Shown piece after piece: positions 18,835 through 59,211 of a stretch of 64,000 nucleotides of DNA. Every line of letters starts with the position of its first letter. Within the stretch, counting starts at the first letter, position 1. The notes under the pieces were generated by a model, which worked only from the letters and a program-made list of their open reading frames with translations, searched no databases and was not told where the DNA came from. The stretch comes from Vicinamibacterales bacterium (lineage in GTDB: Bacteria > Acidobacteriota > Vicinamibacteria > Vicinamibacterales > UBA8438), in the NCBI GenBank assembly GCA_965222265.1, contig CBDCTP010000003.1, forward strand, positions 3,710,841 to 3,774,840, written 5' to 3'. The translations under genes were made by a program, and so were the position numbers.

Positions 18835-18961
18835 CAGGAGTCTGCGCCGCAGACTCCGCAAGGCGCGCACAGCGCGCCTCGGCGGGAGCGGCGCGGGGCG
18901 CAGGGGTCCCCGCAAGCGGACGCCGGGGGTTCGGAGCACAGCCCCGTCTGATTGAGGCTAG
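18835..18961 (+). repeat. GC-rich multi-hairpin intergenic repeat, copy A (full length, short hairpin-1 loop)
   Basis: CAGGAGTCTGCGCCGCAGACTCCGCAAGGCGCGCACAGCGCGCCTCGGCGGGAGCGGCGCGGGGCGCAGGGGTCCCCGCAAGCGGACGCCGGGGGTTCGGAGCACAGCCCCGTCTGATTGAGGCTAG. It fills the gap between the convergent stops at 18824-18826 (+) and 18958-18960 (-). Confidence 0.9.
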
Positions 18962-20298
18962 CCGAACAGGGCGTTGACGATGAACGTGGCGGCCAGGATG
19001 CCGGCAACGTCCGCCAGCAGGCAGGCGGGCACCGCGTGGCGGGTGTCCTTGACGCCGACGGCGCCGAAGTAGACGGCCAGCACGTAGAACGTGGTCTCGG
19101 TGCTGCCCTGGTAGGTGCTGACCAGGTAGCCGATCAGCGAATCGGGACCGTACTCCGTCATCGCCTCCGAGGCCACCCCCATGGCGCCCGAGCCGGACAG
19201 CGGGCGCAGCAGGGCCATTGGCAGGGCCTCGGCCGGGATGCCGACCAGGCCGGTCAGCGGCGCCGCGAGCCCGATCAGCACGTCCAGCGCCCCGGACGCC
19301 CTGAACATCCCGACCAGCACGAGAATGGCGACCAGATACGGAATGATGCGGATGGCGACCTGAAACCCGTCCCGGGCGCCCTCGACGAGCGACTCGTACA
19401 CGCGCACGCCGCGGACCCAGCCGTAGAGCACGAGCGCGGCGACGACCGCCGGCAGAAGCCACGACGAGGCCATGTCGCGCAGCACGTCGCCGGCCGGGAC
19501 GGCCGGGTCGCGGTTGAAGAGGACGCTCGCGGCCGCGATCAGGAAGGTCGCCCAGAACCCCCAGCCCAGCGCCCGGCGCCCTGCGGCGGGACGGGCGGCG
19601 CTGACGGTTGCCGCCGCCGGGTCGGCCGCCGGCGTCTCGCGCCCGGGTGCGGCCGCGTCGGGGGCCGGCGCCGCGAGCGGTGGCGGGGCCGAGGCACGAT
19701 AACGGGGCAGGCGGGCCAGAAGCAGCGCGGCCGTCACCCCGACGACGGTGGCCGCCGCGGTGGCGAACCACGTGGGCAGCAGGATGCCGGCCGCGTCGCC
19801 CGAGCCGAGCGCCGCACGGATGCCGATCATCCCGGTCGGGAGCAGGGCCAGCCCCGAGGTATTGATGGCCAGGAAGAGCACCATGTGATTCGTGGCCACC
19901 CCGTGCCGGCTGTTGTGCTTGTCGAGCTCCTCGATCGCCTTGATGCCGAAGGGCGTGGCCGCATTCGCCAAACCCATCATGTTGGCCGCGATGTTCAGGA
20001 GCATGGCGCTCATGGCCGGGCTGTCCGGAGGCAGTCCCGGGAAGAGCAGGCGCATGACCGGGCTGACGAGCCGCGCCAGGCGCGCCATCAGCCCGGCGTC
20101 GGACGCGACGCGCATGAGGCCGAGGAAGAAGGCCATGACCCCCACGAGGCCGATCGCAAGGTCGACGGCGCCGCGCGCCGACGAGACGACCGCATCGGTC
20201 AGGGCCCGCATCTCCCCGCTGAGCGCCGCGGCGAGAATCGAGGCGAGGGCGACGACGACGAAGATGCCGTTCAGCATGCGCGTCTGCTGCGGCTCCAT
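18958..20298 (-). CDS. Nucleoside-recognition-domain membrane protein (SpmA/SpmB-like fusion)
   Basis: Track ORF 18958..20352. The likely start is MEPQQTRMLNGIF (20298) or MLNGIF (20277). Motifs LLNIAANMMGLANAATPFGIKAIEEL and ...GSGAMGVASE...STETTFYVLAVYFG are typical of Gate/nucleoside-recognition proteins. Confidence 0.8.
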   Translation of the reverse strand: MEPQQTRMLNGIFVVVALASILAAALSGEMRALTDAVVSSARGAVDLAIGLVGVMAFFLGLMRVASDAGLMARLARLVSPVMRLLFPGLPPDSPAMSAMLLNIAANMMGLANAATPFGIKAIEELDKHNSRHGVATNHMVLFLAINTSGLALLPTGMIGIRAALGSGDAAGILLPTWFATAAATVVGVTAALLLARLPRYRASAPPPLAAPAPDAAAPGRETPAADPAAATVSAARPAAGRRALGWGFWATFLIAAASVLFNRDPAVPAGDVLRDMASSWLLPAVVAALVLYGWVRGVRVYESLVEGARDGFQVAIRIIPYLVAILVLVGMFRASGALDVLIGLAAPLTGLVGIPAEALPMALLRPLSGSGAMGVASEAMTEYGPDSLIGYLVSTYQGSTETTFYVLAVYFGAVGVKDTRHAVPACLLADVAGILAATFIVNALFG

Positions 20299-20437
20299 GG
20301 TAGCAGGACGCCGTCCGGGCCGGCGTCCGCCGCCGCAGAGGCCGTTGCGCACGACGGGCGGCGGCGGAGGATGTGCGGGGCGCCGTGGCGAACCGCGCTA
20401 TGCTGTAGCGGAACGCTCTCATTGTCAGGAGATACCG

Positions 20438-21703
20438 ATGCTGAACGGAGCTGTATCTGGTGGTTCGTTCGCCGCCGCCGCGGTGTCCGCCGCCCTCGTG
20501 GCGGCCTTGAACGTACCGGCCGCGGCGCAGGAGACCCAACAGCGGCAGGGCTGTCGCGGTTGCGAATCGTCGGCCGCGCTGTCCGCCGAGCCGCAGGTCT
20601 TCCACACGCAGGAGCAGAGCTTCCGGGTGGTGCCGATGAAGGGCCTGGTGCGCCCCTGGGCGCTGGCCTTCCTGCCGAACGGCGACCTGCTGATCACCGA
20701 GCACGACGGCCGGCTCCGCATCGTGCGCGACGGCGTGCTCGATCCCGAGCCGCTAGCCGGCCTGCCAGAGGTGTTCACACCCCGCCGCAAGGGGCTGATG
20801 GACGTCGCGCTGCATCCCCGCTTCCTGGAGAACCAGTTCGTCTACTTCACCTACCACAAGGCGAGCCCCAAGCACCGGCTGGCCGCCACGACGGTGCTCG
20901 CCCGCGGCAAGTTCGAGGGGCGGGGCGCACTGGTGGAGGTGCGGGACCTCTTCGTGGCGGACGCCGACTACATGGGCGCGGCGCAGACCTCGCGCATCGT
21001 CTTCGGACCCGACGGCAAGCTGTACATGGTGATCGGCCAGCCGGCGCGTTACGAGGTGGGCTCGGCCGACTACGCGCAGGACCCGTCCAACCACGCCGGC
21101 AAGATGCTGCGCCTCAACGACGATGGCAGCGTTCCCGACGACAATCCGTTCGTCGACGCGCCGGGGCATCGCCCCGAGATCTACGCCCTCGGCATCCGCA
21201 ACGCGAACGGGCTGGCCTGGCACCCGGACACCGGCGAGCTGTGGGAGACCGAGAACGGGCCGCAGGGCGGCGACGAGGTCAACATCATCCGCGCCGGCGC
21301 CAACTACGGCTGGCCGGTCGTCTCGTACGGACGGGCGTACTCGGGCGACCTGACCGGGACGCATTCCGGGCCGCAGCAGACCGCCCGGCAGGCGGAGGGG
21401 ATCGAGGACCCGGTCTTCTTCTGGAGCCCGTCGATCTCGCCCGCCGGGCTGATGTTCTATACCGGCGACCGCTTCCCGAACTGGCAGGGCGACCTGTTCG
21501 TCGGCGGGCTGCGGGGCGCGGAGCTCCAGCGCCTGATCTTCAACGATCGCGGCCTGCTGGTACGCCAGCAGTCGCTGCTTCGCGAGCTCAGGCAGCGCAT
21601 CCGGGAGGTCAAGCAGGGGCCGGACGGCCTGATCTACCTGCTGACCGACGAGCAGGACGGCGCACTGCTGCGGCTCGAGCCCGTCGACCCGGAGAAAGGC
21701 TAG
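20438..21703 (+). CDS. PQQ-dependent sugar dehydrogenase (soluble glucose/sorbosone dehydrogenase family), paralogue 1
   Basis: Start at ATG 20438 (MLNGAVSGG..., with a CAGGAG Shine-Dalgarno). Signal peptide, then LAFLPNGDLLITEHDGRLRIV, GIRNANGLAWHPDTGELWETENGPQGGDEVNII and GANYGWP. Confidence 0.88.
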   Translation: MLNGAVSGGSFAAAAVSAALVAALNVPAAAQETQQRQGCRGCESSAALSAEPQVFHTQEQSFRVVPMKGLVRPWALAFLPNGDLLITEHDGRLRIVRDGVLDPEPLAGLPEVFTPRRKGLMDVALHPRFLENQFVYFTYHKASPKHRLAATTVLARGKFEGRGALVEVRDLFVADADYMGAAQTSRIVFGPDGKLYMVIGQPARYEVGSADYAQDPSNHAGKMLRLNDDGSVPDDNPFVDAPGHRPEIYALGIRNANGLAWHPDTGELWETENGPQGGDEVNIIRAGANYGWPVVSYGRAYSGDLTGTHSGPQQTARQAEGIEDPVFFWSPSISPAGLMFYTGDRFPNWQGDLFVGGLRGAELQRLIFNDRGLLVRQQSLLRELRQRIREVKQGPDGLIYLLTDEQDGALLRLEPVDPEKG

Positions 21704-21707
21704 CTGC

Positions 21708-21846
21708 TGGGAGTCTGCGCCCTAGTCAAGGGTGCAGACTCCGCAAGGCGCGCACAGCGCGCCTCGGCGGGAGCGGCGCGGGGCGAAGGGTCCCCGCAAG
21801 CGGACGCCGGGGGGTTCAGGGCGCAGCCCCGTCTGATTGCAGCTAG
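21708..21846 (+). repeat. GC-rich multi-hairpin intergenic repeat, copy B
   Basis: Same sequence family as copy A, with hairpin-1 loop GCCCTAGTCAAGGGT. It is bounded by TAG 21701-21703 (stop of the + gene) and CTAG 21843-21846 (stop of the - gene). Confidence 0.9.
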
Positions 21847-24071
21847 CGGGACGCAGCCGTGGCCGCGTTGCCCAGCGCGTCGGCGGCCCGGATGGCGAGC
21901 CGGTCGATCTGATCGCGGTCGACGGACAGCTGGAAGCGCTCGACCCTGGAATCGGCGATCCCGTCGAGCGGATACAGCACCTCCCAGCGTGCGGTGTCGA
22001 GCGAATACTCGACGCGGCGCACCGGAGACTGCCCGTCGGTGACGACGAACGAGACCGCGAACCCGCCCGCGTCCGGGCGCGGGGCATCGATGTCGATGCG
22101 GGGCGGCGAGTTGTCCACGTCGAACGGCTTGCTCTCGGCGAGGCCCTCGAGGCCTGTCCCTGGCGCGTTGGTGTCGGCGTCGGAGGCGACGAGGCGGACG
22201 AGGTAGGTCCCGTCGGGAGCGGACGTCGTATCCCACGTGTAGATGGAGCTCCCGATCCCGGTCCGCAGCGCGCGCCACGACGTGTCCGTCTCGGTGCGCA
22301 CCAGCAGATCGAAACGCAGCGTGTCGTTGTTCGGGTCGCGCGCCGTCCAGACGAACGTGCGGAGCCCTCGCCGGTAGACGCGGCGTCCCAGCGCCGTCTG
22401 CTGGGTGTCACTCTGCGCTCCGCCGGCGCCGTTCCCGGAACCCGCTTCCAGACGGTCGTCGAGACCCGCGATGGGCGGATCTCCGCTCGCGAACGGCCGC
22501 TGGAAGGCCACGCCCGGGTCGTGCACGGTCAGCGTCGTGATCTCGGGCCGCAGGTTCTGCGGCAGGTACGCGGCCGTGACCGAGAGCAGCGTCGGGGTGT
22601 CGGCGCCGCCGCGCAGCTCGGCCTTCCATTGCAGATAGCGTGCCCTGGGGCTGGTGATGGGGGAGCCGTCCGCGTCGCTGTAGGCCACTGACCAGGGGCT
22701 CCACGCGTCGTTGGGCGTGGACGTGTTGCCCGACCGGGTGAAGAGCTGCACCGAGCTGTCGCCGGGGATCAGCGCTTGCCAGCGCAACGTGCCCCACCTG
22801 GCGACCGTCCGGGCATCGCGCACGTCCGACAGGTACGCGCCCTGGCCGGCCTGACCGGGCAGCAGTCGATAGACCTTGCCGGGGTTGGCCGTGGCGTAGT
22901 AGCGGGCGCCGCCGGCGCCGGCCGCAAAGCTGGTGACCTGCCGCGCGGGCGCCCGTGCGAGCAGCCGGACCCGCGGCGGATCCTCGGCGACGTGGTAGAT
23001 GCGGCCGCTGGGGCCGGTGCCGATCAGCAGGTCGCCGCGCGCGTCGATCGAGACATCGTACGGCGTCTCCCGCGAGGATTCCCACACCGTGTCCCACACG
23101 CCGTCGGCGCGAATCCGGTAGACGGCGCCCCGCACCGGCGATGTCGGCCCGGCCGTCTGCGCCGGGCGGGCGGTTGTCGCCGAGGTTTGCCCGGCATCGC
23201 CCACGACGACGGCGGTGACCGAGGTGGACGTCGTCACGCGCGGGACGCCGGGCGAGCGTGTGGGCGGCGCTGGCCGGGACGCGGCGCCGCGCGGCGCCGA
23301 CTCGCCGACGGCGACCGCGTAGAGCGTGCCGTCGCCCGCGACGCGGAGCGCCCGAATCTCCGCGTACGGCGAGTCGAGGACGACGAAGCCGCGCCCGTCG
23401 GCGCCGATTCGCAGCACCTGTCCCGGCGTGCCGGTGCCCGCCAGCAGGTTGCCCTCGGCGTCGCGGGCCAGGGCGAGGACGTGCGACGCGTCCGCCTCGT
23501 AGAACACGCTCGCCTCGCCGTCGGGGGACAAGTGGTAGATGCGGCCCGCGTCACCGGTGGCCACGAGGCGGTTGCCCGCCGCGTCGGCCGCGATCGCCCA
23601 GATATAGCGGTCGTCGGGGTCGAAGACCTGCTCGGAGCGGCCGCTGCCGACCCGGAACAGCGCGCCGTCGGGAGAGGTGCCGACCAGGGCTTCGCCCGCA
23701 CCATAGGGGTGGACGGCATGGACGTTCTGCTCCGCGGTCTCGAAGACCGTCGAGGCGGTGCCGTCCGGCCCCAGGCGAAACACCCTGCCGTCGCCGCCGC
23801 TGCCGATCCACAGCGCGCCGCCCGCCGGCGCGAGCGACCACAGGAACGGGGCGGTCGCTTCGTAGAGCAGCTCCGCGTCGCGGGCCAGCGTCAGCCGGCC
23901 GTCCGCGTCGATCGACACCCTGTCGGCCTCGCCGGCGAGGAACTCCGCCTGCGTCGAGATCCGCCAGAAAACGGGCGCGGATGCGTGGAGCACGACGACC
24001 GGCAGGCAGGCTGCGGCCGCAATTGCGGCGCGGCGGAGGCCCGTTCGCCAGCGCGAGCGCGGGCTCGTCAT
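21843..24071 (-). CDS. Large secreted beta-propeller plus Ig-like/beta-sandwich repeat protein, hypothetical
   Basis: Track ORF 21843..25277. The real start is ATG 24071 (MTSPRSRWRTGLRRAAIAAAACLPVVVLHA), overlapping the upstream gene stop as ATGA. Repeated blades follow (GGDGRVFRLGPDG, SPDGALFRVGSG, GDAGRIYHLSPDG, GTPGQVLRIGADG, GPSGRIYHVAED, ANPGKVYRLLPG). C-terminal beta-sandwich-like modules follow (ARYLQWKAELRG..., FDVDNSPPRIDI...). Confidence 0.8.
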   Translation of the reverse strand: MTSPRSRWRTGLRRAAIAAAACLPVVVLHASAPVFWRISTQAEFLAGEADRVSIDADGRLTLARDAELLYEATAPFLWSLAPAGGALWIGSGGDGRVFRLGPDGTASTVFETAEQNVHAVHPYGAGEALVGTSPDGALFRVGSGRSEQVFDPDDRYIWAIAADAAGNRLVATGDAGRIYHLSPDGEASVFYEADASHVLALARDAEGNLLAGTGTPGQVLRIGADGRGFVVLDSPYAEIRALRVAGDGTLYAVAVGESAPRGAASRPAPPTRSPGVPRVTTSTSVTAVVVGDAGQTSATTARPAQTAGPTSPVRGAVYRIRADGVWDTVWESSRETPYDVSIDARGDLLIGTGPSGRIYHVAEDPPRVRLLARAPARQVTSFAAGAGGARYYATANPGKVYRLLPGQAGQGAYLSDVRDARTVARWGTLRWQALIPGDSSVQLFTRSGNTSTPNDAWSPWSVAYSDADGSPITSPRARYLQWKAELRGGADTPTLLSVTAAYLPQNLRPEITTLTVHDPGVAFQRPFASGDPPIAGLDDRLEAGSGNGAGGAQSDTQQTALGRRVYRRGLRTFVWTARDPNNDTLRFDLLVRTETDTSWRALRTGIGSSIYTWDTTSAPDGTYLVRLVASDADTNAPGTGLEGLAESKPFDVDNSPPRIDIDAPRPDAGGFAVSFVVTDGQSPVRRVEYSLDTARWEVLYPLDGIADSRVERFQLSVDRDQIDRLAIRAADALGNAATAASR

Positions 24072-25900: not shown

Positions 25901-26032
25901 GGAGCAGGCCGCAGCGTCGACTGCCTATAGCCGATGTGTATAGCGGACCGCAGGCGGCAGGTCAAGGATGTTCGGGCGCCGGGGGAACCGCGCTATGCTG
26001 TAGCGGAACCTTCTCATGGTCAGGAGATGCCG

Positions 26033-27316
26033 ATGCTGAACGGAGCCATTCCACGTGAGCTGCTGGCTGTCGCGAGCGTCGCCGTCGCGGTGCTGCTGGG
26101 CGTGCCGGCCGCGGCGCAGGAGTTCGAGCCGGCGATCGACGAAAGGCAGCGGCGGACCGACTGTCAGGGCTGCGAGCCGTCGGCCGCCCTGTCCGACGAG
26201 CCGCGGATCTTCCACACGCAGGAGCAGAGCTTCCGGGCGGTGCCCATGACGGGCCTGGTGCGCCCGTGGGCGCTTGCCTTCCTGCCGAATGGCGACCTGT
26301 TGATCACGGAGCACGGCGGCCGGCTTCGCATCGTGCGCGACGGCGTGCTCGACCCCGAGCCGCTGGCCGGCATCCCGGAGGTGTTCACCAGGCGCCGCAA
26401 GGGGTTGATGGACATCGCACTCCATCCCCGCTTCGCGGAGAACCAGTTCGTCTACTTCACCTACCACCAGCAGAGCTCGGCGCACCGCATGGCGGGCACG
26501 CCGGTACTCGCCCGCGGCAAGTTCGAGGGGCGGGGCGCGCTCGTGGAGGTGCGCGACCTGTTCGTGGCGGAAGCGCCGTACATGGGCGGAGCCCAGACGG
26601 CTCGCATCGCGTTCGGGCCGGACGGCAAGGTGTACATGGTCATCGGTGTCCCGACCCGCAACCCGGTGGGCCAGGCCGAGAGCGCCCAGGACCCGGCCGA
26701 CCACGCCGGCAAGGTGCTGCGGCTGAACGACGACGGAACCGTTCCCGAGGACAACCCGTTCGTCGACACGCCGGGCCACCGGCCGGAGATCTACGCGCTC
26801 GGCATCCGCAACGCGAACGGGCTCGCGTTCCACCCGGAGACCGGCGAGCTGTGGGAGACGGAGAACGGCCCCCAGGGCGGCGACGAGGTGAACATCATCC
26901 GCGCCGGCGCCAACTACGGCTGGCCGGTCGTCTCGTACGGACGGGCGTACTCCGGCGATCTCACCGGCACGTACTCCGGGCCGCAGCAGACCGCCCGGCA
27001 AGCGGAGGGCATCGACGACCCGGTCTTCTTCTGGAGCCCGTCGATCTCGCCGGCGGGCATGCTGTTCTACACGGGCGACCGCTTTCCGAACTGGACCGGA
27101 GACCTCTTCGTCGGCGCGCTGCGCGGGCGGGAGGTGCAGCGCCTGATCTTCAACGATCGCGGCCTGCTGGTGCGCCAGCAGTCGCTGCTGCGCGAGTTCA
27201 GGCAGCGCATTCGGGAGGTGAGGCAGGGGCCGGACGGCCTGATCTACGTGCTGACCGACGAGGAGGACGGCGCGCTGCTCCGGCTCGAGCCGGTCGACGC
27301 GGAGGCGGCGCCGTAG
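26033..27316 (+). CDS. PQQ-dependent sugar dehydrogenase, paralogue 2
   Basis: Start at ATG 26033 (MLNGAIPRELL...). It is highly similar to 20438..21703 along the whole length, including about 80 nt of 5' leader. Confidence 0.88.
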   Translation: MLNGAIPRELLAVASVAVAVLLGVPAAAQEFEPAIDERQRRTDCQGCEPSAALSDEPRIFHTQEQSFRAVPMTGLVRPWALAFLPNGDLLITEHGGRLRIVRDGVLDPEPLAGIPEVFTRRRKGLMDIALHPRFAENQFVYFTYHQQSSAHRMAGTPVLARGKFEGRGALVEVRDLFVAEAPYMGGAQTARIAFGPDGKVYMVIGVPTRNPVGQAESAQDPADHAGKVLRLNDDGTVPEDNPFVDTPGHRPEIYALGIRNANGLAFHPETGELWETENGPQGGDEVNIIRAGANYGWPVVSYGRAYSGDLTGTYSGPQQTARQAEGIDDPVFFWSPSISPAGMLFYTGDRFPNWTGDLFVGALRGREVQRLIFNDRGLLVRQQSLLREFRQRIREVRQGPDGLIYVLTDEEDGALLRLEPVDAEAAP

Positions 27317-27548: not shown

Positions 27549-27585
27549 GCCGGCAGGTCGACATTCAGGACGAGACGGATTTTCG

Positions 27586-27622
27586 AGCCTCTTCAGCCGC
27601 AACGGTTGAAGAGGCTTTTTTT
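27586..27622 (+). terminator. Intrinsic terminator (attenuator) upstream of aroDE
   Basis: AGCCTCTTCA (27586-27595) pairs with TGAAGAGGCT (27607-27616). The stem is extended by G-U plus CCG/CGG, with loop CAA, and is followed by a T-run to 27622. It lies 19 nt before GTG 27641. The alternative pairing CTGGAGGGGCT (27529-27539) with AGCCTCTTCAG (27586-27596) would form an antiterminator. Confidence 0.8.
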
Positions 27623-27640: not shown

Positions 27641-29098
27641 GTGCGAGCCAGGCTGTGCGCGACGGTAACGGGCCGAACGATGGCGGAGCTGCGGGCGCGC
27701 CGCGACGGGACGGACGGGGCGGACCTGGTCGAGCTGCGCCTCGATCAGGTGCGCGACCCGGATGTCGCCGCCGCGCTCGCGGGCCGGCGCACCCCCGTGG
27801 TGGTGACCTGCCGGCCCGCCTGGGAGGGAGGCGGCTTCCGCGGCTCCGAGGAGGAGCGCCGCGGCCTGCTCGAGCGGGCGCTGGAGCTCGGCGCCGACTA
27901 CGTCGATCTGGAATGGCGGGCCGGACTGGACGACCTGATTCGGGCCCGGCGCGGGCGGAACGTCGTCCTGTCGACGCATGATTTCGAGCGGATGCCCGGC
28001 GACCTCGCCGACCGCTACCGGGCCCTGCGGGCGACCGGCGCCGAGGTCGTGAAGATCGCCGCCCGGGCGCGCAGCCTGACCGAGACCCTGGCCCTGCTGG
28101 AGGTCGGCGCCGGCGAGCCGGGCCGCGTGCTGGTCGCGATGGGGCCGGCGGGCACGGCGTCCCGCGTGCTGCCCGACCGCTTCGGGTCGGCCTGGACCTA
28201 CGCCGGCGACGGCGTCGCCCCGGGTCAGATCGCCCTGCGCCGCATGCTCGACGAGTTCCGGGTCCGCTCGGTCTCGGACTCGACACGGCTGTACGGCGTG
28301 CTCGGTGCGCCGGTAGGGCACTCGCTGTCGCCCGCGATGCACAACGCCGCCTTCGCCGCCGCCGGGTGCGATGCCATCTACCTGCCCCTGGAGGCGGCGA
28401 GCGCGGACGACTTCTGGACGTTCGCGCGGGCGCTGAGGCTGCGCGGCGCGAGCGTGACGGCGCCCTTCAAGGAGGCCGTTCTGCCGGGCCTGGCCGCGAC
28501 GGACGCGCTGGTGCGTCAGGTCGGCGCCGCCAACACCCTGCGGATCGGCGAGCGCGGGTGGGAGGGTATCAACACGGACGTGCCGGGCTTTCTGGAGCCG
28601 CTGGCCGGCCGCATGGCGCTGCAGGGCAGCCGTGCGACCGTGCTCGGCGCCGGCGGCGCGGCGCGCGGCGTGGCGGTGGCGCTCGACGGCGCGGGGGCGC
28701 AGATCACGGTCTGCGCGCGCAACGCCGAGCGCGCCGCCGGCGTGGCGCGGCTGGTCGGCGGCAGCGCCCGCGGGCTGCCGCCGGCGGCCGGCTCGTGGGA
28801 CCTGCTCGTCAACACGACGCCGGTCGGCACGGCCCCCGGCGTCGGGGACAGCCCGCTGCCCGGGGGACCGTTCGACGGCCGCCTGGTGTACGACCTGGTC
28901 TACAACCCGGCCACGACCCGGTTGCTGGCGGACGCGTCGGCCGCCGGATGCGGCATCCTCGGCGGGCTGCCGATGCTGGTGGCCCAGGCCGTCAGGCAGT
29001 TCGAATGGTGGACGGGCAAGGCCGCGCCGCGCGACGCGTTCGCGGCGGCGGCGCGGCGGCGGCTGGCCGCAGCGGAAGACCAGGAGTCTGCGCCGTAG
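27641..29098 (+). CDS. aroDE: Bifunctional 3-dehydroquinate dehydratase (type I) / shikimate 5-dehydrogenase
   Basis: 485 aa. The N-terminal half is AroD-like (LVELRLDQV..., VVLSTHDF..., VKIAA). The C-terminal half is AroE-like (LYGVLGAPVGHSLSPAMHNAAF, VTAPFKEAV, GAANTL, INTDVPGF, VLGAGGAARGVAVAL, LVNTTPVG). The last codons, QESAP*, lie inside repeat copy C. Confidence 0.9.
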   Translation: MRARLCATVTGRTMAELRARRDGTDGADLVELRLDQVRDPDVAAALAGRRTPVVVTCRPAWEGGGFRGSEEERRGLLERALELGADYVDLEWRAGLDDLIRARRGRNVVLSTHDFERMPGDLADRYRALRATGAEVVKIAARARSLTETLALLEVGAGEPGRVLVAMGPAGTASRVLPDRFGSAWTYAGDGVAPGQIALRRMLDEFRVRSVSDSTRLYGVLGAPVGHSLSPAMHNAAFAAAGCDAIYLPLEAASADDFWTFARALRLRGASVTAPFKEAVLPGLAATDALVRQVGAANTLRIGERGWEGINTDVPGFLEPLAGRMALQGSRATVLGAGGAARGVAVALDGAGAQITVCARNAERAAGVARLVGGSARGLPPAAGSWDLLVNTTPVGTAPGVGDSPLPGGPFDGRLVYDLVYNPATTRLLADASAAGCGILGGLPMLVAQAVRQFEWWTGKAAPRDAFAAAARRRLAAAEDQESAP

Positions 29099-29214
29099 AA
29101 CCGGTGCAGACTCCGCAAGGCGCGCACGGCGCGCCTCGGCGGGAGCGGCGCGGGGCGCAGGGGTCCCCGCAAGTGGACGCCGGGGGTTCGGGGCAAAGCC
29201 CCGTCTGAGTAAAG
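29081..29214 (+). repeat. GC-rich multi-hairpin repeat, copy C (inside the operon, between aroDE and trpE)
   Basis: Same family. The aroDE stop TAG (29096-29098) lies in the hairpin-1 loop GCCGTAGAACCGGT. The element's right end abuts trpE ATG 29215. Confidence 0.9.
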
Positions 29215-30729
<1,515 letters not shown>

Positions 30730-35044: not shown

Positions 35045-35848
35045 ATGTCGCGCATCGACGAGACGTTCACACGGCTGCGGTCGGATGGCCGGACAGGTCT
35101 GGTGACCTTCGTCACCGCCGGCGATCCGGACATGGAGCGCTCGGCGCTCGTGCTCGAGACGCTGGACCGGGCGGGGGCGGACGTGCTGGAGGTCGGTATT
35201 CCGTTCTCCGATCCGCTGGCGGACGGCCCGGCAATCCAGCGGTCGTCGGAGCGGGCGCTCGCGGCCGGCACGACGCTGGCGTCGAGCCTGGACCTGGTAG
35301 GGCGCGTCCGGCCCCGGATCGACGGCGCGGTGGTCGTCTTCAGCTACGTTAATCCGGTGCTGGCGATGGGACTCGATCGCTTCGTCCGGCGGGCGGCCGA
35401 CGCCGGCGTCGACGGGGTGCTGGTGCTCGACCTGCCGATCGAGGAGGCCGACGATCTGCGCGACGCGGCGGTCAGCGTGGCGATCGACCCCATCTTCCTG
35501 CTGAGCCCGACGACGACGGAGGCGCGTATTCGGCGCGCCGCAACACTGGGCCGGGGCTTTCTGTACGGCATCTCGCGATTGGGCGTCACGGGCGAGCGCG
35601 ATACGATTGCAACGGGCGCCCGCGAGCTGGTCGGGCGCATCCGGGCAATCACGGAGCTGCCTGTCGCGCTCGGTTTCGGCATCTCGCGTCCCGAGCACGT
35701 GGCCCAGGTCGGCGCCTGGGCGGACGCCGCGGTGGTCGGGAGCGGGCTGGTGAACACGGTGGCGCGGGCATCGCGCGGCGGCGACCTGGCAGGCGAGGTG
35801 GACCGCTACATACGTTGGTTGAAGGGCGGGAGCTCGACAAGCCGATGA
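35045..35848 (+). CDS. trpA: Tryptophan synthase alpha chain
   Basis: 267 aa. Contains LVTFVTAGDP, LEVGIPFSDPLADGPAIQ and GFGISRPEHV. Its ATG directly follows the trpB TAG. Confidence 0.95.
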   Translation: MSRIDETFTRLRSDGRTGLVTFVTAGDPDMERSALVLETLDRAGADVLEVGIPFSDPLADGPAIQRSSERALAAGTTLASSLDLVGRVRPRIDGAVVVFSYVNPVLAMGLDRFVRRAADAGVDGVLVLDLPIEEADDLRDAAVSVAIDPIFLLSPTTTEARIRRAATLGRGFLYGISRLGVTGERDTIATGARELVGRIRAITELPVALGFGISRPEHVAQVGAWADAAVVGSGLVNTVARASRGGDLAGEVDRYIRWLKGGSSTSR

Positions 35849-36201
35849 CCGACAAGCCGAAGGATCCGGCGGACGACCAGGACAGCGCGACGGCGGACGC
35901 GGCGGGGCAGATGCGCCAGTTTCGGGAGCGCATCGACCGGCTGGACGCCGAGATCGTCCGGTTGTTGAACGCTCGCGCGGAATGCGCCCTGGCGCTCGGC
36001 CGGCTCAAGGAGGCGGTCGGTCTGGACACCTACCAGCCGGACCGGGAGCTTGCGGTGCTCGCGCACGCGCGGGCGACGAACGACGGGCCGCTCGATGCCG
36101 GCGCCATCACGCGCCTGTTCGAGCGCATCATCGACGAGAACCGCCGGCTCGAGCGGCTGGCGGAGTGCAAGGACACGCCCTCGCAGGAGTCTGCGCCGTA
36201 G
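35845..36201 (+). CDS. Chorismate mutase (AroQ class)
   Basis: Start ATG 35845 overlaps the trpA stop (ATGA); the track offers 35815. FRERIDRLDAEIVRLLNARAECALALGRLK and RELAVLAHAR...ITRLFERIIDENRRLE match the CM_2 helices. The C-terminal QESAP* is encoded by repeat copy D. Confidence 0.85.
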   Translation: MTDKPKDPADDQDSATADAAGQMRQFRERIDRLDAEIVRLLNARAECALALGRLKEAVGLDTYQPDRELAVLAHARATNDGPLDAGAITRLFERIIDENRRLERLAECKDTPSQESAP

Positions 36202-36318
36202 AAGGTGCAGACTCCGCAAGGCGCGCACAGCGCGCCTCGGCGGGAGCGGCGCGGGGCGCAGGGGTCCGCGCAAGCGGACGCCGGGGGTGCGGGGCGCAGC
36301 CCCGTTTGATTGAAGCTA
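36184..36318 (+). repeat. GC-rich multi-hairpin repeat, copy D (inside the operon, between chorismate mutase and DAHP synthase)
   Basis: Same family. The stop TAG 36199-36201 lies in the hairpin-1 loop GCCGTAGAAGGT. Hairpin 3 is perfect here (GTCCGC GCAA GCGGAC). Confidence 0.9.
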
Positions 36319-36335
36319 TGGAGGTTGCAGAACCT

Positions 36336-39307: not shown

Positions 39308-39444
39308 CTACCTTCAATCAAACGGGGCTACGCCTCGAACCCCCGGCGTCCGCTTGCGGGGACCCCTGCGCCCCGCGCCGCTCCCGCCGAGGCGCGCCGT
39401 GCGCGCCGTGAGGAGCCTCACTATTCTACGGTGCAGACTCCTAG
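39308..39444 (-). repeat. GC-rich multi-hairpin repeat, copy E (inverted orientation, most diverged)
   Basis: The reverse complement matches the family consensus. Hairpin 1 is degenerate (GGAGTCTGC...GAGGCTCC). It lies in the divergent spacer between 38834..39301 (-) and pepA (+). Confidence 0.85.
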
Positions 39445-39507: not shown

Positions 39508-41037
<1,530 letters not shown>

Positions 41038-42960: not shown

Positions 42961-43050
42961 AGGATAGCCGCGGCGATCCCGGGGCCGCGTGAGATCTATC
43001 GACCGACGACGACCCGAGCCTTACCCGCCCGCAAGAAATAGCCGGCCGCC

Positions 43051-43150
43051 GCGAGGCGCGCACAGCGCGCCTCGGCGGGAGCGGCGCGGGGCGCAGGGGT
43101 CCCCGCAAGCGGACGCCGGGGGTTCGGGGCATAGCCCCGTCTGATTGATG
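43051..43150 (+). repeat. GC-rich repeat, copy F (5'-truncated: lacks hairpin 1)
   Basis: GCGAGGCGCGCACAGCGCGCCTCGGCGGGAGCGGCGCGGGGCGCAGGGGTCCCCGCAAGCGGACGCCGGGGGTTCGGGGCATAGCCCCGTCTGATTGATG. It abuts copy G directly. Confidence 0.88.
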
Positions 43151-43251
43151 CCGCGCACGGCGCGCCTCGGCGGAGCGGCGCGGGGCGCAGGGGTCCCCGC
43201 AAGCGGACGCCGGGGGTTCGGGGCGCAGCCCCGTCTGATTGAAGCCACTAG
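43151..43251 (+). repeat. GC-rich repeat, copy G (5'-truncated), tandem to F
   Basis: CCGCGCACGGCGCGCCTCGGCGGAGCGGCGCGGGGCGCAGGGGTCCCCGCAAGCGGACGCCGGGGGTTCGGGGCGCAGCCCCGTCTGATTGAAGCCACTAG. The terminal CTAG contains the ftsK stop (43248-43250). Confidence 0.88.
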
Positions 43252-45542
43252 CGCGGCTGCAGGTCAACTTCCTCGAAGTAGTCCTGCTTGACGAGCACCT
43301 CACGCGCCTTGCCGGACGCGGCCGCCGACACCAGCCCGTCGGCTTCCATCATGTCGACCAGCCGTGCGGCGCGGCTGAAGCCGATGCGCAGGCGGCGCTG
43401 CAGGTAGGAAATCGACGCCTGGCCGCTCGATACCACGATACGCGCGGCCTGGTCGTACAGATCGTCGCGATCGAAAGCGGGCGTGCCGGTCGGTTGCTCC
43501 TCCTCGGTGATGGTGTCGTCGTACCCGGGCTCGCCCTGCTTGCGCAGAAAGCTGGCCAGCCGTGCGGTCTCCTGCTCGGAAATGTACGGGCCGTGGAGTC
43601 GGATGGTGCGGGAGGAGGACGGTGGAGCGTACAGCATGTCGCCCTTGCCGAGCAGCTGCTCGGCGCCGTTCGCGTCGAGGATCGTTCGGGAGTCGACCTT
43701 CGACGACACACGGAACGCGATTCGCGACGGAAAGTTGGCCTTGATCAAGCCGGTGATGACGTCGACCGATGGACGCTGGGTGCAGAGGATCAGGTGAATG
43801 CCCACGGCGCGCGCCATTTGCGCCAGTCGGGCGATCGACTCCTCGACCTCGTTGCCGGCCACCATCATGAGGTCCGCCAGTTCGTCGATCGCGACGACGA
43901 TGTACGGGAGCGGCTTCAACTCCTCCCCGTCGTCCGACGCGGTCTTGTCTTCCGACTCGCGCAGCTGTGCGGCAATGTTGCGGTTGTACTGCTCGATGTT
44001 GCGCACCCCCTCCGTGGCGAGTTGCTTGTAGCGGCCCTCCATCTCCCGCACCGCCCAGCGCAGCGCATTGGCGGCTCGCTTCGGATCGACGACGACGGGG
44101 GTGAGCAGATGCGGGATCTCCTCGTACATCCCGAGTTCGAGGCGCTTGGGATCGATGAGGATGAGACGGACGTCGTCCGGGGTGGACCGATACAGGATGC
44201 TGGTGAGGATCACGTTGAGGGCGACCGACTTGCCGGTGCCCGTCGAGCCCGCGATCAGCAGGTGCGGCATCCGCGTGAGATCCGTCACGGCCGGTTCGCC
44301 GTGGATCGACTTGCCCAGAGCCAGCGTCAGCTTCGACGGCGAGCGCTGATAGGCCTCCGACTCCAGCAGCTCCCGGATCGAGATCTCGTCGCGGATCTGA
44401 TTCGGGATCTGTATGCCGACGGTCGATTTTCCCGGAATCCGCTCGATCAGCACCGACTCGGCCTGCATCGCGAGGCTGAGATCCTCGGCAAGCCTCGTCA
44501 CCTTGCTGTACTTGACGCCCGCATCGGGCTTGAACTCGAACGTCGTGACCACGGGACCGGGGTGAAACTGTGAGACCGAACCGGCGACGGAGAACTCGCG
44601 ACACTTCTCCTCGAGCAGGGCCGCGTTGTCCATGAGCATGCGCTCGTCGAACTTCTGGACGGCCTTCGGGGAGTCGAGCAGCGCCAGGGGCGGATGGACG
44701 AACGAGCCGTTGCGCTGCTCCGTGGACGTCTTGAGCGGCAGGTCCTCCAGGGGCAGCATGGGTGTCATGCCTGGGGGATCCTCGGCGTCGTCCTCCTTGG
44801 GCGGGGCGGGCGGCGGCTCCGTCGTCTCCGGGCGCGGCGCGCGGGCCGGCGGCTGGCTCTTGGCCAGCACCTCGGTGCGTGCGGTCGATGCGCCGGCCTT
44901 CTCGAGGTGCTTGCGCACGACGCCGCGCCGCTGCCGGTCGCGCCGGCGCTTCGTCCACCACTGCCGAACGGCGCCGCGCGCGCGTCCCAGGCCCTGGCCG
45001 AGGGTGCGGGCGGCCTGGATGAACAGACGGCCGAAGGAGAACTGCGTCACCAGGATCAGGGCCAGGGACAACAGTGCCAGCAGGACGATGATCGAACCGG
45101 CGCGGTTCAGGTACGGGGCGAGCAGCCCGGCCAGGCTCTCCCCGACGTACCCGCCGGCCCGCACCGTCTTGCCCAGCACGTCGACCATGTCGAACGCGAG
45201 GGTCAACAGCGTCGCGCTGCATCCGAACAGCAGGATGGAGCCGACGAGCTTCGTGTACGCAGCGTCGATCTGCAGGCACCAGAAGTAGTACCAGCCCGCG
45301 ACCACGAGCACCGCCGGCACGAGGTACGACGCCAGCCCGAATATCTGATACGAGACTTCCGCCAGGAAGGCGCCGGCCAGGCCGGCGAGGTTCATCGGCG
45401 GCACCTCGCCGCCGGCGTTGAAGAACCAGACCGCGTCGGTCGGATCGTACGTCACCAGGGCGATGAGCCAGACCGACGCAATCGCGAAGAATACGACTCC
45501 GAGGAACTCGCTTATCAGATGTGGCAGCGCGGCTCGCGGCAC
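43248..45542 (-). CDS. ftsK: DNA translocase FtsK
   Basis: 764 aa with N-terminal TM helices and a Pro-rich linker. The motor domain has PHLLIAGSTGTGKSV, the Walker B-like LPYIVVAIDELADLMM, and a gamma domain (YDQAARIVVSSGQASISYLQRRLRIGFSRAARLVDMME). Confidence 0.95.
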   Translation of the reverse strand: MPRAALPHLISEFLGVVFFAIASVWLIALVTYDPTDAVWFFNAGGEVPPMNLAGLAGAFLAEVSYQIFGLASYLVPAVLVVAGWYYFWCLQIDAAYTKLVGSILLFGCSATLLTLAFDMVDVLGKTVRAGGYVGESLAGLLAPYLNRAGSIIVLLALLSLALILVTQFSFGRLFIQAARTLGQGLGRARGAVRQWWTKRRRDRQRRGVVRKHLEKAGASTARTEVLAKSQPPARAPRPETTEPPPAPPKEDDAEDPPGMTPMLPLEDLPLKTSTEQRNGSFVHPPLALLDSPKAVQKFDERMLMDNAALLEEKCREFSVAGSVSQFHPGPVVTTFEFKPDAGVKYSKVTRLAEDLSLAMQAESVLIERIPGKSTVGIQIPNQIRDEISIRELLESEAYQRSPSKLTLALGKSIHGEPAVTDLTRMPHLLIAGSTGTGKSVALNVILTSILYRSTPDDVRLILIDPKRLELGMYEEIPHLLTPVVVDPKRAANALRWAVREMEGRYKQLATEGVRNIEQYNRNIAAQLRESEDKTASDDGEELKPLPYIVVAIDELADLMMVAGNEVEESIARLAQMARAVGIHLILCTQRPSVDVITGLIKANFPSRIAFRVSSKVDSRTILDANGAEQLLGKGDMLYAPPSSSRTIRLHGPYISEQETARLASFLRKQGEPGYDDTITEEEQPTGTPAFDRDDLYDQAARIVVSSGQASISYLQRRLRIGFSRAARLVDMMEADGLVSAAASGKAREVLVKQDYFEEVDLQPR

Positions 45543-56460: not shown

Positions 56461-56474
56461 CCCGGCCGACCGGC

Positions 56475-57686: not shown

Positions 57687-57694
57687 CCGCGTTC

Positions 57695-59077
57695 ATGCTG
57701 TCCCCCGGCCTCATCGAGGCGCTCGTGCAGATCGTCGGACCGGGCCACGTCCGTCAGGACGACGAGAGCTGTCGCGAGTACGGCGCAGACGCACTGGGCA
57801 GAGGCCGTCCGGCCGACGCGGTGGTCTTTCCAGGCTCGACCGCCGACGTGGCGGCGGTCGCACGGCTCTGCGACCGCGAACGGATACCGCTGACGCCGCG
57901 CGGCGCCGGAACCGGGTACACCGGTGGCGCGGTACCGTCCGCAGGCGGCGTAGTGCTGGCCATGGAGCGGCTGCACCGGATCCTCGAGATCGACGCGGGG
58001 AGCCTGCTGGCGGTCGTCGAGCCGAACGTCGTCACCGCGCGCCTGCAGCAGGCAGTCGAGGAGCTCGGCCTGTTCTATCCGCCGGACCCCGCCAGCCTGC
58101 AGCGGTCGGTGATCGGCGGGAACGTGGCCGAATGCGCCGGCGGCCCCCGGGCGTTCAAATACGGGACGACGAAGCGCTACGTGCTGGGGCTGGAGGCCGT
58201 GCTGCCGACCGGCGAGATCATCGAGACCGGCGGCCGCTCCGTCAAGAACGTGGTCGGCTACGATCTGACGCAGTTGCTGGTGGGATCCGAGGGAACACTG
58301 GCGATCATCACGAAGATCATCCTGCGGCTCATCCCGAAGCCGCCGGCGCGCGCGACGATCCGCGCCGGGTTCCGGAGCGTGGAAGACGCGGTGGGCGCGG
58401 TGGGCCGCCTGCTGGCCGAGCGGGTCGTTCCGGCCGCGCTCGAGTTGATCGACAGCGACTGTCTCGATGCGCTGGCCGCGGCGGCGGGCCGCCGCATGGC
58501 GGATCCGGGAACCGGCGCGATGCTGCTGATGGAGGTCGACGGGATGCCGGAAGCCGTCGCCGCCGAGGCCGAGCGCGTGAGGCTCGCCTGCGAGTCGCAG
58601 GGGGCCACCCGCGTTCGACAGGCCGGCAACGCGGCCGAGCGAGCCGAGCTCTGGCGGCTGCGCCGCGAGCTGTCGTTCGCCTTGCGGGCGCAGGCGCCGC
58701 TCAAGATCAACCACGACGTCGTGGTGCCCAAGGCAAGGATTCCGGAGCTGTTCGCGGCCGTCGATGCCCTGCGGCGGTCTCTTCGGCTCCGCATGTCGAG
58801 CTTCGGGCACGTCGGCGACGGCAACATCCACGTCAACATCCTGCTGGATCCGCAGGACCAGGCCGCGCTGGCGCGGGCGCGCGAGGCCGAACGCCGCCTG
58901 TTCGAGCAGGTCGTGCGCCTCGAGGGCTCCATCAGCGGCGAGCACGGCATCGGGCTCTCCAAGGCGGCCTACCTGCGGCTGGAGCTCTCCGACGACGTGA
59001 TTGCCCTGATGCGGCGGCTGAAGGCGGCCTTCGATCCGCATGGCATTCTCAATCCCGGCAAGATCTTTCCGCCCTAG
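57695..59077 (+). CDS. FAD-linked oxidase (GlcD / D-lactate dehydrogenase-like)
   Basis: 460 aa. FAD_binding_4 pattern (VVFPGSTADVAAVARLC...PRGAGTGYTGGAVP) and the C-terminal SGEHGIG motif. The stop TAG 59075-59077 lies in the CTAG end of repeat H. Confidence 0.88.
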   Translation: MLSPGLIEALVQIVGPGHVRQDDESCREYGADALGRGRPADAVVFPGSTADVAAVARLCDRERIPLTPRGAGTGYTGGAVPSAGGVVLAMERLHRILEIDAGSLLAVVEPNVVTARLQQAVEELGLFYPPDPASLQRSVIGGNVAECAGGPRAFKYGTTKRYVLGLEAVLPTGEIIETGGRSVKNVVGYDLTQLLVGSEGTLAIITKIILRLIPKPPARATIRAGFRSVEDAVGAVGRLLAERVVPAALELIDSDCLDALAAAAGRRMADPGTGAMLLMEVDGMPEAVAAEAERVRLACESQGATRVRQAGNAAERAELWRLRRELSFALRAQAPLKINHDVVVPKARIPELFAAVDALRRSLRLRMSSFGHVGDGNIHVNILLDPQDQAALARAREAERRLFEQVVRLEGSISGEHGIGLSKAAYLRLELSDDVIALMRRLKAAFDPHGILNPGKIFPP

Positions 59078-59211
59078 CTTCAATCAGACGGGGCTGCGCC
59101 CCGAACCCCCGGCGTCCGCTTGCGGGGACCCCTGCGCCCCGCGCCGCTCCCGCCGAGGCGCGCTGTGCGCGCCTTGCGGAGTCTGCACCGTTCTACGGCG
59201 CAGACTCCTAG
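59074..59211 (-). repeat. GC-rich multi-hairpin repeat, copy H (inverted orientation, best-formed hairpins, CTAG at both ends)
   Basis: The reverse complement reads CTAGGAGTCTGCGCCGTAGAACGGTGCAGACTCCGCAAGGCGCGCACAGCGCGCCTCGGCGGGAGCGGCGCGGGGCGCAGGGGTCCCCGCAAGCGGACGCCGGGGGTTCGGGGCGCAGCCCCGTCTGATTGAAGCTAG. Confidence 0.9.

Follow-up and report, generated by a model that had tools for sequence, protein, structure and literature searches.

Eight intergenic repeats at the locus

The 64-kb stretch of a Vicinamibacterales genome analysed here (contig CBDCTP010000003.1; 'the window' denotes this stretch at its full length) carries eight copies of a multi-hairpin repeat, dispersed among genes that are functionally unrelated. 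A sequence-only reading had described eight copies in both orientations, and exactly eight are returned both by nhmmer, run over the whole window with a profile made from the six long copies (E = 1e-41 to 6e-25, with no further copies), and by independent repeat finding, the coordinates given in that reading proving good to a few bases. The next-best profile matches in the window (E >= 0.1) represent hairpin 1 of the repeat read on the reverse strand, or noise. The window has a G+C content of ~70% throughout; the core units in it have a mean identity of 94%, in keeping with the near-identity first judged by eye, and the consensus drawn at that stage was accurate. A complete copy consists, in order, of hairpin 1, a leader, hairpin 2, a C domain, hairpin 4 and a purine-rich tail. 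With window genes called by our own codon-usage log-odds and checked against Pfam around the copies, the eight copies (c1 to c8) are as follows.

c1, 18835-18961, plus strand: between convergent genes 18479-18826 (plus) and 18958-20298 (minus, Gate-domain protein); hairpin 1 18838-18856 (a short 19-nt palindrome), hairpin 2 18862-18878, C domain 18884-18929, hairpin 4 18932-18946, tail 18947-18957; the CTAG at 18958-18961 provides the TAG stop of the minus-strand gene.
c2, 21708-21846, plus strand: between convergent genes 20483-21703 (plus, GSDH) and 21843-23993 (minus); hairpin 1 21711-21741, hairpin 2 21747-21763, C domain 21769-21814, hairpin 4 21817-21831, tail 21832-21842; the CTAG at 21843-21846 provides the stop of the minus-strand gene.
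c3, 29081-29217, plus strand: fills the junction between an aroD/aroE fusion gene (27680-29098) and trpE (29215-30729); hairpin 1 29084-29113, hairpin 2 29119-29135, C domain 29141-29186, hairpin 4 29189-29203, tail 29204-29214; the upstream gene (protein end ..QESAP) stops at the hairpin 1 loop TAG, 29096-29098, and the trpE ATG follows directly on the tail.
c4, 36184-36319, plus strand: in an aromatic amino-acid operon, between the genes for chorismate mutase (35815-36201) and DAHP synthase (36348-37385); hairpin 1 36187-36214, hairpin 2 36220-36236, C domain 36242-36287, hairpin 4 36290-36304, tail 36305-36315; the hairpin 1 loop TAG at 36199-36201 is the chorismate mutase stop.
c5, 39308-39444, minus strand: in the divergent region between 38834-39295 (minus) and pepA 39541-41037 (plus); tail 39312-39322, hairpin 4 39323-39337, C domain 39340-39385, hairpin 2 39391-39407, hairpin 1 39413-39440; flanked by CTAC (39308-39311) and CTAG (39441-39444).
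c6, 43045-43150 (profile match start 43025/43045, end 43152), plus strand: first unit of a head-to-tail pair, without hairpin 1; hairpin 2 43055-43071, C domain 43077-43122, hairpin 4 43125-43139, tail 43140-43150.
c7, 43150-43251 (profile match 43148-43248), plus strand: second unit, joined to c6 at the tail AAG/ATG, without hairpin 1; hairpin 2 43150-43166, C domain 43171-43216 (one G deleted), hairpin 4 43219-43233, tail 43234-43244; then CCA and, at 43248-43251, a CTAG with its TAG serving as stop of ftsK. The pair stands antisense between an amidase gene (41302-42960, minus) and ftsK (43248-45542, minus).
c8, 59074-59211, minus strand: between a FAD-linked oxidase gene, 57695-59077 (plus), and a radical-SAM gene, 59233-60330 (minus); tail 59078-59088, hairpin 4 59089-59103, C domain 59106-59151, hairpin 2 59157-59173, hairpin 1 59179-59207; flanked by CTAG at 59074-59077 (the TAG stop of the plus-strand gene) and CTAG at 59208-59211.

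Copy c8 is the one nearest the consensus in the window. On the profile, the c5 match covers 39308-39443 and the c8 match 59074-59210. The two copies at 43 kb had been called truncated, and they do form a head-to-tail pair that lacks hairpin 1. That the copies have no gene of their own and lie between genes also stands, the neighbours being confirmed by Pfam, with the correction that in c3 and c4 the upstream gene extends into hairpin 1 with its stop and the five codons before it.

A modular element with paired stems

Hairpin 1 (GAGTCTGCGCCG-(T/C)AGAA-CGGTGCAGACTC; ~30 bp) precedes a leader (CGCAAGG), hairpin 2 (GGCGCGC-ACR-GCGCGCC), a nearly invariant C domain of ~46 nt (GGGAGCGGCGCGGGGCGMAGGGGYCCCCGCAAGCGGACGCCGGGGG), hairpin 4 (YGGGGC-GCA-GCCCCR) and the purine-rich tail (TCTGAWKGARG, ending ..GTCTGATTGAAG). 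The body (that is, hairpin 2, the C domain and hairpin 4) is GC-rich and ~100 nt long, and elements measure 95-140 nt. In related genomes, hairpin 1 is present on only about one-quarter of the copies, where it invariably heads the copy or array at its 5' end, the remaining copies starting with a different GC-rich palindrome or being 5'-truncated. Multi-unit arrays account for 40 of 137 and hold 2-9 units, all head-to-tail with a period of ~95 or 116-118 nt; every within-array junction lies at an AAG that is common to the leader (CAAGG), an internal site (CAAGC) and the tail (GAAGC), which fits duplication and deletion by microhomology. Rather than the fixed four-hairpin unit that was first proposed, the layout is modular, with a head, a repeatable body and a tail.

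For the secondary structure, 110 distinct units were aligned and the pairing was drawn by hand, because the RNAalifold consensus mis-drew hairpin 4. In this structure 97.6% of the cells are paired, compared with 37-56% when the partners are slid. Compensatory changes occur in four pairs (39 double-change cells versus 9.1 in shuffles): G-C to C-G in 14 sequences and C-G to U-A in 2 in hairpin 2, C-G to U-A in 2 sequences in the C stem, and C-G to U-A in 21 at the closing pair of hairpin 4. As some of these double changes are inherited as subfamily markers, the number of independent events is small. The element strand folds ~10 kcal/mol better than its complement. Within the stems of the same alignment there is no asymmetry between G-U and A-C mismatches (28 versus 24), so that the constraint looks like that on a DNA-level palindrome or an orientation-independent hairpin, and not like that on an RNA made from one strand.

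None of the window reaches an Rfam gathering threshold; the best match on c8 in E-value mode is naRNA4, at 18.8 bits (threshold 59.5; E = 0.23). Inside the copies we found neither a promoter consensus nor a U-tract terminator. The possibility that the repeats are intrinsic terminators was rejected, given that none of the terminator-like sites at 18.5-38.4 kb falls inside an element, that copies lie within the aro-trp operon and that their orientation is random. A textbook intrinsic terminator (15-bp stem followed by TTTTTTG) stands at 27585-27617 of the window, just upstream of the aroD/aroE gene; the organism thus has canonical U-tract terminators and does not normally use the repeats as such.

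Hairpin 1 matches both ends of an IS1182-family insertion sequence

Comparison with relatives points to the source of hairpin 1. Three loci in two related genomes contain a 1.61-kb insertion sequence (IS), here termed IS-A, that encodes a 441-aa transposase scoring 376 bits against NF033551 (IS1182 family; cut-off 270) and matching the Pfam families DUF772, DDE_Tnp_1 and DDE_Tnp_1_6. In three unrelated contexts its ends read CTAG-GAGTCTGCGCCGCAG...CTGCGGCGCAGACTC-CTAG, that is, 15-bp inverted repeats inside a 4-bp duplication; the repeats are the same in all three copies and are extended by weaker subterminal similarity. Transposase score, size, inverted repeats and short duplication all agree with the IS1182 family, whose characterised member ISPse1 has 1653 bp, 16-bp inverted repeats (16/16) and a 4-bp duplication (PMC3281130).

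The arms of hairpin 1 match the 15-bp repeats of IS-A at 12-15 positions, so that hairpin 1 consists of the two terminal inverted repeats, left and right, of this IS1182-family IS joined as one hairpin. With up to two mismatches, the IS 15-mer occurs nine times in the window against 1.0 expected, and seven of the nine occurrences lie within the six hairpin 1 copies. The sequence-only reading had stated that the repeats have no terminal inverted repeats; hairpin 1 instead comprises both repeats of the IS found in related genomes, although the match concerns this module and not the element as a whole, given that both arms stand at the 5' end and the 3' end has no repeat. Hairpin 4 was considered as a right-end repeat and rejected, its similarity to the IS repeat (10-11/16) being at chance level by our own estimate for this base composition. 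A link to a known IS end or miniature element, which that reading held would speak against a novel family, therefore exists in part, and came from the comparison with relatives and not from a database hit. Hairpin 1 also occurs alone in relatives, with a CTAG-like tetranucleotide on each side; in one relative such a solo hairpin is found precisely where the gene bordering c8 has its CTAG stop, and in L179 one is inserted next to the tail of an element.

Only two IS types were found when the 679 predicted proteins of the related loci were searched with two DDE transposases. The second was rejected as partner of the repeat, as its ends are unrelated and have no part in the repeat. It encodes a 460-aa IS1182/IS5-like transposase, has the ends CAGCCYGTGG...CCACGGGCTG and 4-bp duplications (CTAA, ATAG and TTTT-like), and lies at the following positions.

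L022, 2719-4222: second IS
L037, 5744-7247: second IS (another copy at 3734-5062)
L084, 2456-3949: second IS

A further short repeat, X (TGAGGGTTGGTTGGGCGGCAAYCGGAGCC...), is absent from the window and always stands directly after a solo hairpin 1 plus a CTAG-like tetranucleotide.

L041, 2150-2197: repeat X
L018, 1314-1331, minus strand: repeat X
L060, 2486-2503, minus strand: repeat X
L062, 663-680: repeat X

The order in L041 is CTAG-hairpin 1-CTAG-X-CTAG-IS-CTAG, which suggests that several small elements nest at CTAG sites. In the window itself, a stretch of ~1.1 kb (9134-10210) has no confident gene; within it lie a very AT-rich segment at 9150-9235, a CTAG at 10059 and, on the minus strand at 10100-10114, a lone half-site like the IS repeat (GAGTCTCCGCCGTAG). 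The stretch could represent either a decayed IS end or a regulatory region.

CTAG as target sequence and source of stop codons

Filled and empty versions of the same site show what happens to the target. At the c5 site the window reads CTAC-element-CTAG, and in L176, L182 and L183 just one CTAG stands immediately ahead of CCTACCGCAGAG; likewise, a four-unit array bearing hairpin 1 in L069 is bracketed by CTAG, and L095 has one CTAG at this site. A polymorphic site in L018 and L075 was set aside as too diverged to read. The CTAG that the first consensus placed at both ends as part of the element is accordingly flanking target sequence. Across loci, the tetranucleotide before hairpin 1 is CCAG (26), CTAG (9), CCGG (7), GCAG (7), CTGG (4) or GTAG (2), and the one after the tail follows C[TC][AG]N; these flanks look like decayed or degenerate forms of CTAG.

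Within the window, CTAG is depleted seven-fold (23 observed versus 172 expected), and of these 23 sites 10 coincide with TAG stops and 9 with element edges, only 3 falling inside genes. As CTAG is scarce and nearly always found at TAG stops or between genes, an element that requires it would land almost only at gene ends; and, because it is palindromic, insertion could occur in either orientation, which matches the random orientation of the copies. Among other tetranucleotides of the window, GATC is abundant (457 versus 172 expected) and CTAG, TTAA, CTAA and TTAG are all 7- to 25-fold depleted, and CCAG and CTGG, the decay products expected of CTAG (by T-to-C and A-to-G changes), occur at expected levels.

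Duplication of CTAG leaves a TAG on each side, and the genes next to c1, c2 and c8 thus end in the flanking CTAG. For ftsK the case is different, as the CTAG 3 nt past the c7 tail, which holds its stop, is native sequence and no duplication. After mutation of the left CTAG to CCAG, the frame reads CAG GAG TCT GCG CCG TAG and ends at the TAG in the hairpin 1 loop: at the c4 site, L182 has TCG TAG and the window has TCG CAG-GAG TCT GCG CCG TAG. A GlcD homologue with a solo hairpin 1 has 464 aa, compared with 460 in the window.

Placement relative to genes

Nearly every array with callable neighbours on both sides (105 of 106) is intergenic. Between co-directional genes the element runs with transcription in 30 cases and against it in 27, and convergent gene pairs (32, with c1, c2 and c8 among the window examples) outnumber divergent ones (16). 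Orientation relative to local GC skew gives 42:42 and 28:18, that is, no replication-strand bias. The tail end is nearly always at a gene boundary, either overlapping a convergent stop by 3 nt or lying 0-60 nt from a start codon; at the other end, the stop of a same-direction upstream gene is often the hairpin 1 loop TAG, and nine arrays, including c3 and c4, overlap that gene by exactly 17 nt.

L073 (1645-1826) and L088 (7018-7226) share an orthologous copy that lies upstream of a tRNA-Leu(CAA) gene, on the strand of that gene, and would therefore form part of the tRNA 5' leader; the distance from its end to the gene is 1 nt in L073 and ~13 nt in L088. The nine-unit array at L048 2507-3576 gives rise to spurious opposite-strand open reading frames (ORFs) of 340-1050 aa, as other arrays do, and repeat-derived 'proteins' have likely been deposited in public databases by gene callers. 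In the window, two paralogous glucose/sorbosone dehydrogenase (GSDH) genes (20483-21703 and 26027-27316) have stretches in common that are 87% identical, and their 65-nt leaders, start codon included (upstream segments 20387-20451 and 25982-26046), are 92% identical; L176 has only the second gene and L177 only the first, which indicates either differential loss or a window-specific duplication.

A high-copy family of one bacterial clade

Relatives were sought with an exact 23-nt core (CTCGGCGGGAGCGGCGCGGGGCG) in a collection of species-representative genomes, a retrieval that biases the sample toward well-conserved copies; the related loci are ~8-kb pieces around the copies, with our own gene calls, and the sequences derive from metagenome-assembled genomes. 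The core occurs in at least 95 stretches, and among the matches listed all but one lie in nine Vicinamibacterales/Vicinamibacteraceae assemblies. The exception, a single 23-mer match in Segniliparus (L017), was rejected as chance, as its flanks are unlike the element. In 699 kb of related loci there are 192 profile matches, and the density is ~1 copy per 7-8 kb both in relatives (with the retrieving match of each locus removed) and in the window. Copies or remnants are also present in two more metagenome contigs, L176 and L179, which brings the total to at least 11 related genomes. Matches include Mb-scale long-read contigs and chromosomes of several genomes, which bears out the view that the family is a genuine interspersed repeat and no assembly artefact.

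The window genome is distinct from these, its coding DNA being 77-85% identical to that of the assemblies from the genome scan and 86-91% identical to that of the closer loci L176 and L177. Among 80 metagenome loci fetched by trpE (930 kb; best 65-70% identical) none has the repeat, and at this distance they are usable only as distant empty sites. An exact-core scan of the viral contigs sampled and a blastn search of plasmids gave no match. As no description was found in Rfam or in the literature searched, in agreement with the first impression that the repeat matches no recognised family, it appears to be an undescribed high-copy family of a Vicinamibacterales clade (Acidobacteriota). In addition, a metagenome contig of 4166 bp in the European Nucleotide Archive encodes a 437-aa fragment (P0262) that is 100% identical to the window amidase (41302-42957), which indicates that this organism, or a strain nearly identical to it, is represented in a publicly available metagenome assembly. 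An exact look-up of the window TrpE protein, by contrast, gave no record.

Frequent turnover at orthologous sites

Orthologous loci fetched with trpE, glcD and amidase homologues reveal gain, loss and truncation at the c1 to c7 sites and at two further sites. At the c3 site, L176 (~90% nucleotide identity) retains nothing but hairpin 4 and the tail, native C-terminal codons having gone as well, and the site is empty in L177 and L178, where the genes overlap as TGATG. The c4 copy has decayed to 65% identity in OZ244900 (an estimate made by eye from the alignment), is a remnant in OZ244229, lacks hairpin 1 together with native codons in CBDCCO and is lost in L176. Copy c2 is 5'-truncated in L176 and absent from L177, which also lacks c1; the c6/c7 array is absent from three relatives and replaces ~38 nt of native sequence. 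Conversely, L177 carries a truncated copy at trpB/trpA that the window lacks, and a JAB-gene junction holds a solo hairpin 1 in L182, hairpin 1 plus three units in L183 and no insertion in the window. One orthologous site has the element in opposite orientations in two genomes. Between close relatives, copies hence come and go, and are truncated, inverted or duplicated in tandem. Between genomes, units are 0.90 identical, compared with 0.87-0.96 within genomes, and most genomes have the same subfamily markers.

A mosaic element with proposed mobilisation by an IS1182 transposase

We propose that the repeats are non-autonomous, mosaic elements resembling MITEs (transposable elements of the miniature inverted-repeat type), moved in trans by an IS1182 transposase and truncated at the 5' end mostly secondarily; judged from sequence comparison, we put the probability of this scenario at about 0.6. 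An element headed by hairpin 1 would insert at CTAG in either orientation and duplicate it as the parent IS does, with the IS1182 transposase acting in trans on head-bearing elements and perhaps using a surrogate right end, in the manner of ISEcp1-type elements. The latter combine a normal left end with a poor surrogate right end and move adjacent DNA with an IS-type duplication. The known cases of such one-ended mobilisation are IS1380-family elements with a transposase of their own; it is not known for IS1182 or for a gene-less repeat pair. Such a mechanism would explain why the body lies outside the IS repeats.

Headless and 5'-truncated copies may then have arisen by deletions that start from hairpin 1, the sole module that the transposase could cut, and are sealed at microhomologies, the 3' part surviving because it adjoins the start or stop codon of a neighbour. 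Such an origin is supported by three truncated copies from which native nucleotides upstream are missing too. Arrays would grow by slippage at the AAG sites. The flanking CTAG would be retained where it serves as the stop of a neighbour or, after mutation to CCAG, the TAG in the hairpin 1 loop would act as a backup stop. Given that the junction between hairpin 1 and the body shows no duplication, the composite probably arose once and then spread as a unit, and, because orthologous copies decay or vanish, no host function would seem to be required at each site.

Several observations weigh against this proposal. About three-quarters of the copies in other genomes have no hairpin 1, and no copy of IS-A is present in the 64-kb window. 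No inverted repeat was found at the right end of the element, where the tail (..CCCCGTCTGATTGAAG) is unlike the IS right end, and how a DDE transposase would cut there without one is unexplained. The junction between hairpin 1 and the body (..GACTC/CGCAAGG..) has CCAG on one side and CGCA on the other, without duplication, so the composite is not simply hairpin 1 inserted beside a body. The c6/c7 array is a lineage-specific insertion that lacks hairpin 1, with its 5' junction in microhomology and without CTAG duplication, and the clean filled and empty sites that show the duplication are two only. The body is ~90% identical between genomes whose coding DNA is 77-90% identical, and a transposase that needs terminal repeats alone would not explain the conservation of ~100 nt; the window copy of c4 is near the consensus even though its site is old.

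Some of these points would sit more easily with a host-adapted body akin to the repetitive extragenic palindromic (REP) sequences and bacterial interspersed mosaic elements (BIMEs), spread by an enzyme of its own (for example, a Y1 REP-associated tyrosine transposase, RAYT) or by gene conversion. Copies would be kept because their hairpins stabilise or punctuate mRNAs, and hairpin 1 would be no more than a frequent hitch-hiker, because each border of the element has the CTAG favoured by the IS. The majority of copies without hairpin 1, the conservation of the full-length body between species with its compensatory pairs, and the near-consensus c4 at an old site all favour such a body, as do the excess of convergent over divergent pairs and the modular, mosaic, array-forming layout, as in BIMEs. 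So does the behaviour of hairpin 1, which inserts alone next to an element tail (L179) and also stands beside repeat X. On the other hand, there is no GTAG/CGTC head (GTAG precedes hairpin 1 in only 2 catalogued 5' flanks), arrays are head-to-tail and not alternating, whole elements that bear hairpin 1 show the IS-type CTAG duplication, and the copies have neither a U-tract terminator nor a promoter consensus. No Y1 gene was noticed among the 679 locus proteins, although these were queried only with IS1182/IS5-type transposases, and the decay or deletion of orthologous copies in some lineages argues against a host function required at each site. We consider this reading unlikely, and the most serious of the alternatives.

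It is also conceivable, if rather improbable, that the body and tail form a self-propagating unit that is recognised in folded form, analogous to a short interspersed element (SINE) or to a one-ended or rolling-circle element, with the IS1182 hairpin as its secondary passenger. Copying would then start from a fixed 3' end, and microhomology would join the 5' end; this would explain the full-length conservation, the excess of 5' truncation and the insertions that lack hairpin 1. Somewhat more doubtful is the related notion of a one-ended or template-copying spread with a fixed 3' end and a variable 5' end (by target-primed reverse transcription, by transposition of the rolling-circle or one-ended type, or by repair of breaks with an ectopic element as template), in which the 5'-truncated copies would be primary products. 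Truncation at the 5' end is indeed ~2.5 times as common as at the 3' end, isolated 5'-truncated copies have intact tails, the two lineage-specific insertions without hairpin 1 (trpB/trpA of L177 and c6/c7 of the window) combine 5' microhomology with a sharp 3' junction, and conservation of the whole body is expected of a folded template. Yet at least three truncated copies (L176 at the c3 and c2 sites; L183 at the c4 site) are deletion derivatives from which native upstream nucleotides are missing, array junctions are explained by AAG microhomology, the stems have no strand asymmetry and the CTAG duplication around full-length copies is what a DDE transposase typically makes. Neither a reverse transcriptase nor an HUH gene was seen near the copies, the locus proteins having been queried only with DDE transposases.

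The better folding of the element strand, some covariation and a purine-rich tail often just upstream of a start codon might suggest a strand-specific structured RNA (that is, a small RNA family, or a cis leader that gives the downstream gene a ribosome-binding site), but this is very improbable given the lack of an Rfam match, the random orientation relative to transcription, the equal frequency of G-U and A-C, the functionally unrelated neighbours, the gain and loss of copies between close relatives inside essential operons and the absence of the family from relatives whose trpE is <= 70% identical to that of the window. Some insertion sequences (IS1397 and members of the IS110 family) target REP-type palindromes, and hairpin 1 palindromes far outnumber IS copies here. 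An IS that inserts into the centre of pre-existing hairpin 1 palindromes, its apparent ends being a split target, is nevertheless very improbable, as all three IS copies share the 15-bp repeats, the subterminal similarity and the outer CTAG in unrelated contexts, have the normal IS1182 build as in ISPse1 (PMC3281130) and are in no case followed by the leader and hairpin 2.

Implications for genome annotation and evolution

At ~1 copy per 7-8 kb, the family would make up ~1-2% of these genomes, which belong to the Vicinamibacterales, an abundant and poorly studied group of soil bacteria. Short-read assemblies break at it, many copies being found at the ends of contigs; its arrays give rise to long spurious ORFs; and it shifts annotated gene ends through C-terminal extensions of the ..QESAP type. 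Differences in copy number and in presence or absence could serve as strain markers. The family further provides a worked example of how an element comes to be placed at gene ends, its target being a purged tetranucleotide that contains a stop codon and the element itself carrying a backup stop. The location of a pair of IS repeats at one end, with a conserved structured body outside them, raises the questions of how IS1182 transposases choose their ends and of whether the body itself plays a part.

Comparison with known systems

IS-derived MITEs (IS5/IS1182-type elements, MITEAba12 and the Correia repeat enclosed elements (CREE) of Neisseria) are, like the present repeats, short, non-coding, high-copy and intergenic; they carry the inverted repeats of a co-resident IS (here within hairpin 1 only) and, in full-length copies, its target duplication (here CTAG), show insertion polymorphism, can supply stop codons and sit in transcribed regions. 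The same duplication as that of the parent IS is found at the c5 site and at L069/L095, with c6/c7 as an exception, and the elements are small, multi-copy and polymorphic, as expected of MITEs. They differ in that a MITE has its body between the inverted repeats, whereas here both IS repeats form a hairpin at one end with the ~100-nt body outside, the right end is without an inverted repeat, most copies are headless and units form head-to-tail arrays. Three mobile or repetitive types were considered and rejected. The palindrome-associated transposable elements (PATE) of the IS200/IS605 type do not fit a CTAG duplication and a lack of orientation bias with GC skew; enterobacterial repetitive intergenic consensus (ERIC) elements are palindromic over their whole length, and the ends here are not complementary; and Correia elements have 26-bp terminal inverted repeats, a TA duplication and an integration host factor (IHF) site, and the duplication here is CTAG.

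In architecture, the closest parallels are BOX of Streptococcus pneumoniae and BrickBuilt of Porphyromonas gingivalis (PMC4596501), which likewise consist of a leader, tandem units and a tail, are intergenic, fold stably and have a limited host range. Their repeated units are shorter (23 nt in the BrickBuilt MITE and 45 nt for boxB; PMC4596501) than the ~95-118 nt seen here, and the present family has an unrelated sequence, an IS1182-derived leader and no promoter consensus that we could find.

The REP/BIME elements of enterobacteria and pseudomonads resemble the family in their density of ~1 per 7-8 kb, in being GC-rich palindromes between genes and within operons, in their mosaic modules, in their enrichment between convergent pairs and in being targeted by another IS family. 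The likeness to REP/BIME, ERIC or Correia-type elements that the sequence-only reading had drawn thus holds for density and placement and fails on the defining features of each: for REP/BIME, no hairpin has a GTAG/CGTC head, the units of the 40 multi-unit arrays are direct and not alternating, and there is a specific tetranucleotide target with duplication. Mycobacterial interspersed repetitive units (MIRUs) are tandem units of 40-100 bp at intercistronic junctions of operons in a high-GC genome, with flanking stop and start codons that overlap the repeat; in contrast to the present elements, they are not multi-hairpin and have neither an IS-derived head nor a CTAG target. On present sequence evidence, therefore, the element appears to act like an IS-derived MITE, to be built like BOX or BrickBuilt and to be distributed like REP/BIME.

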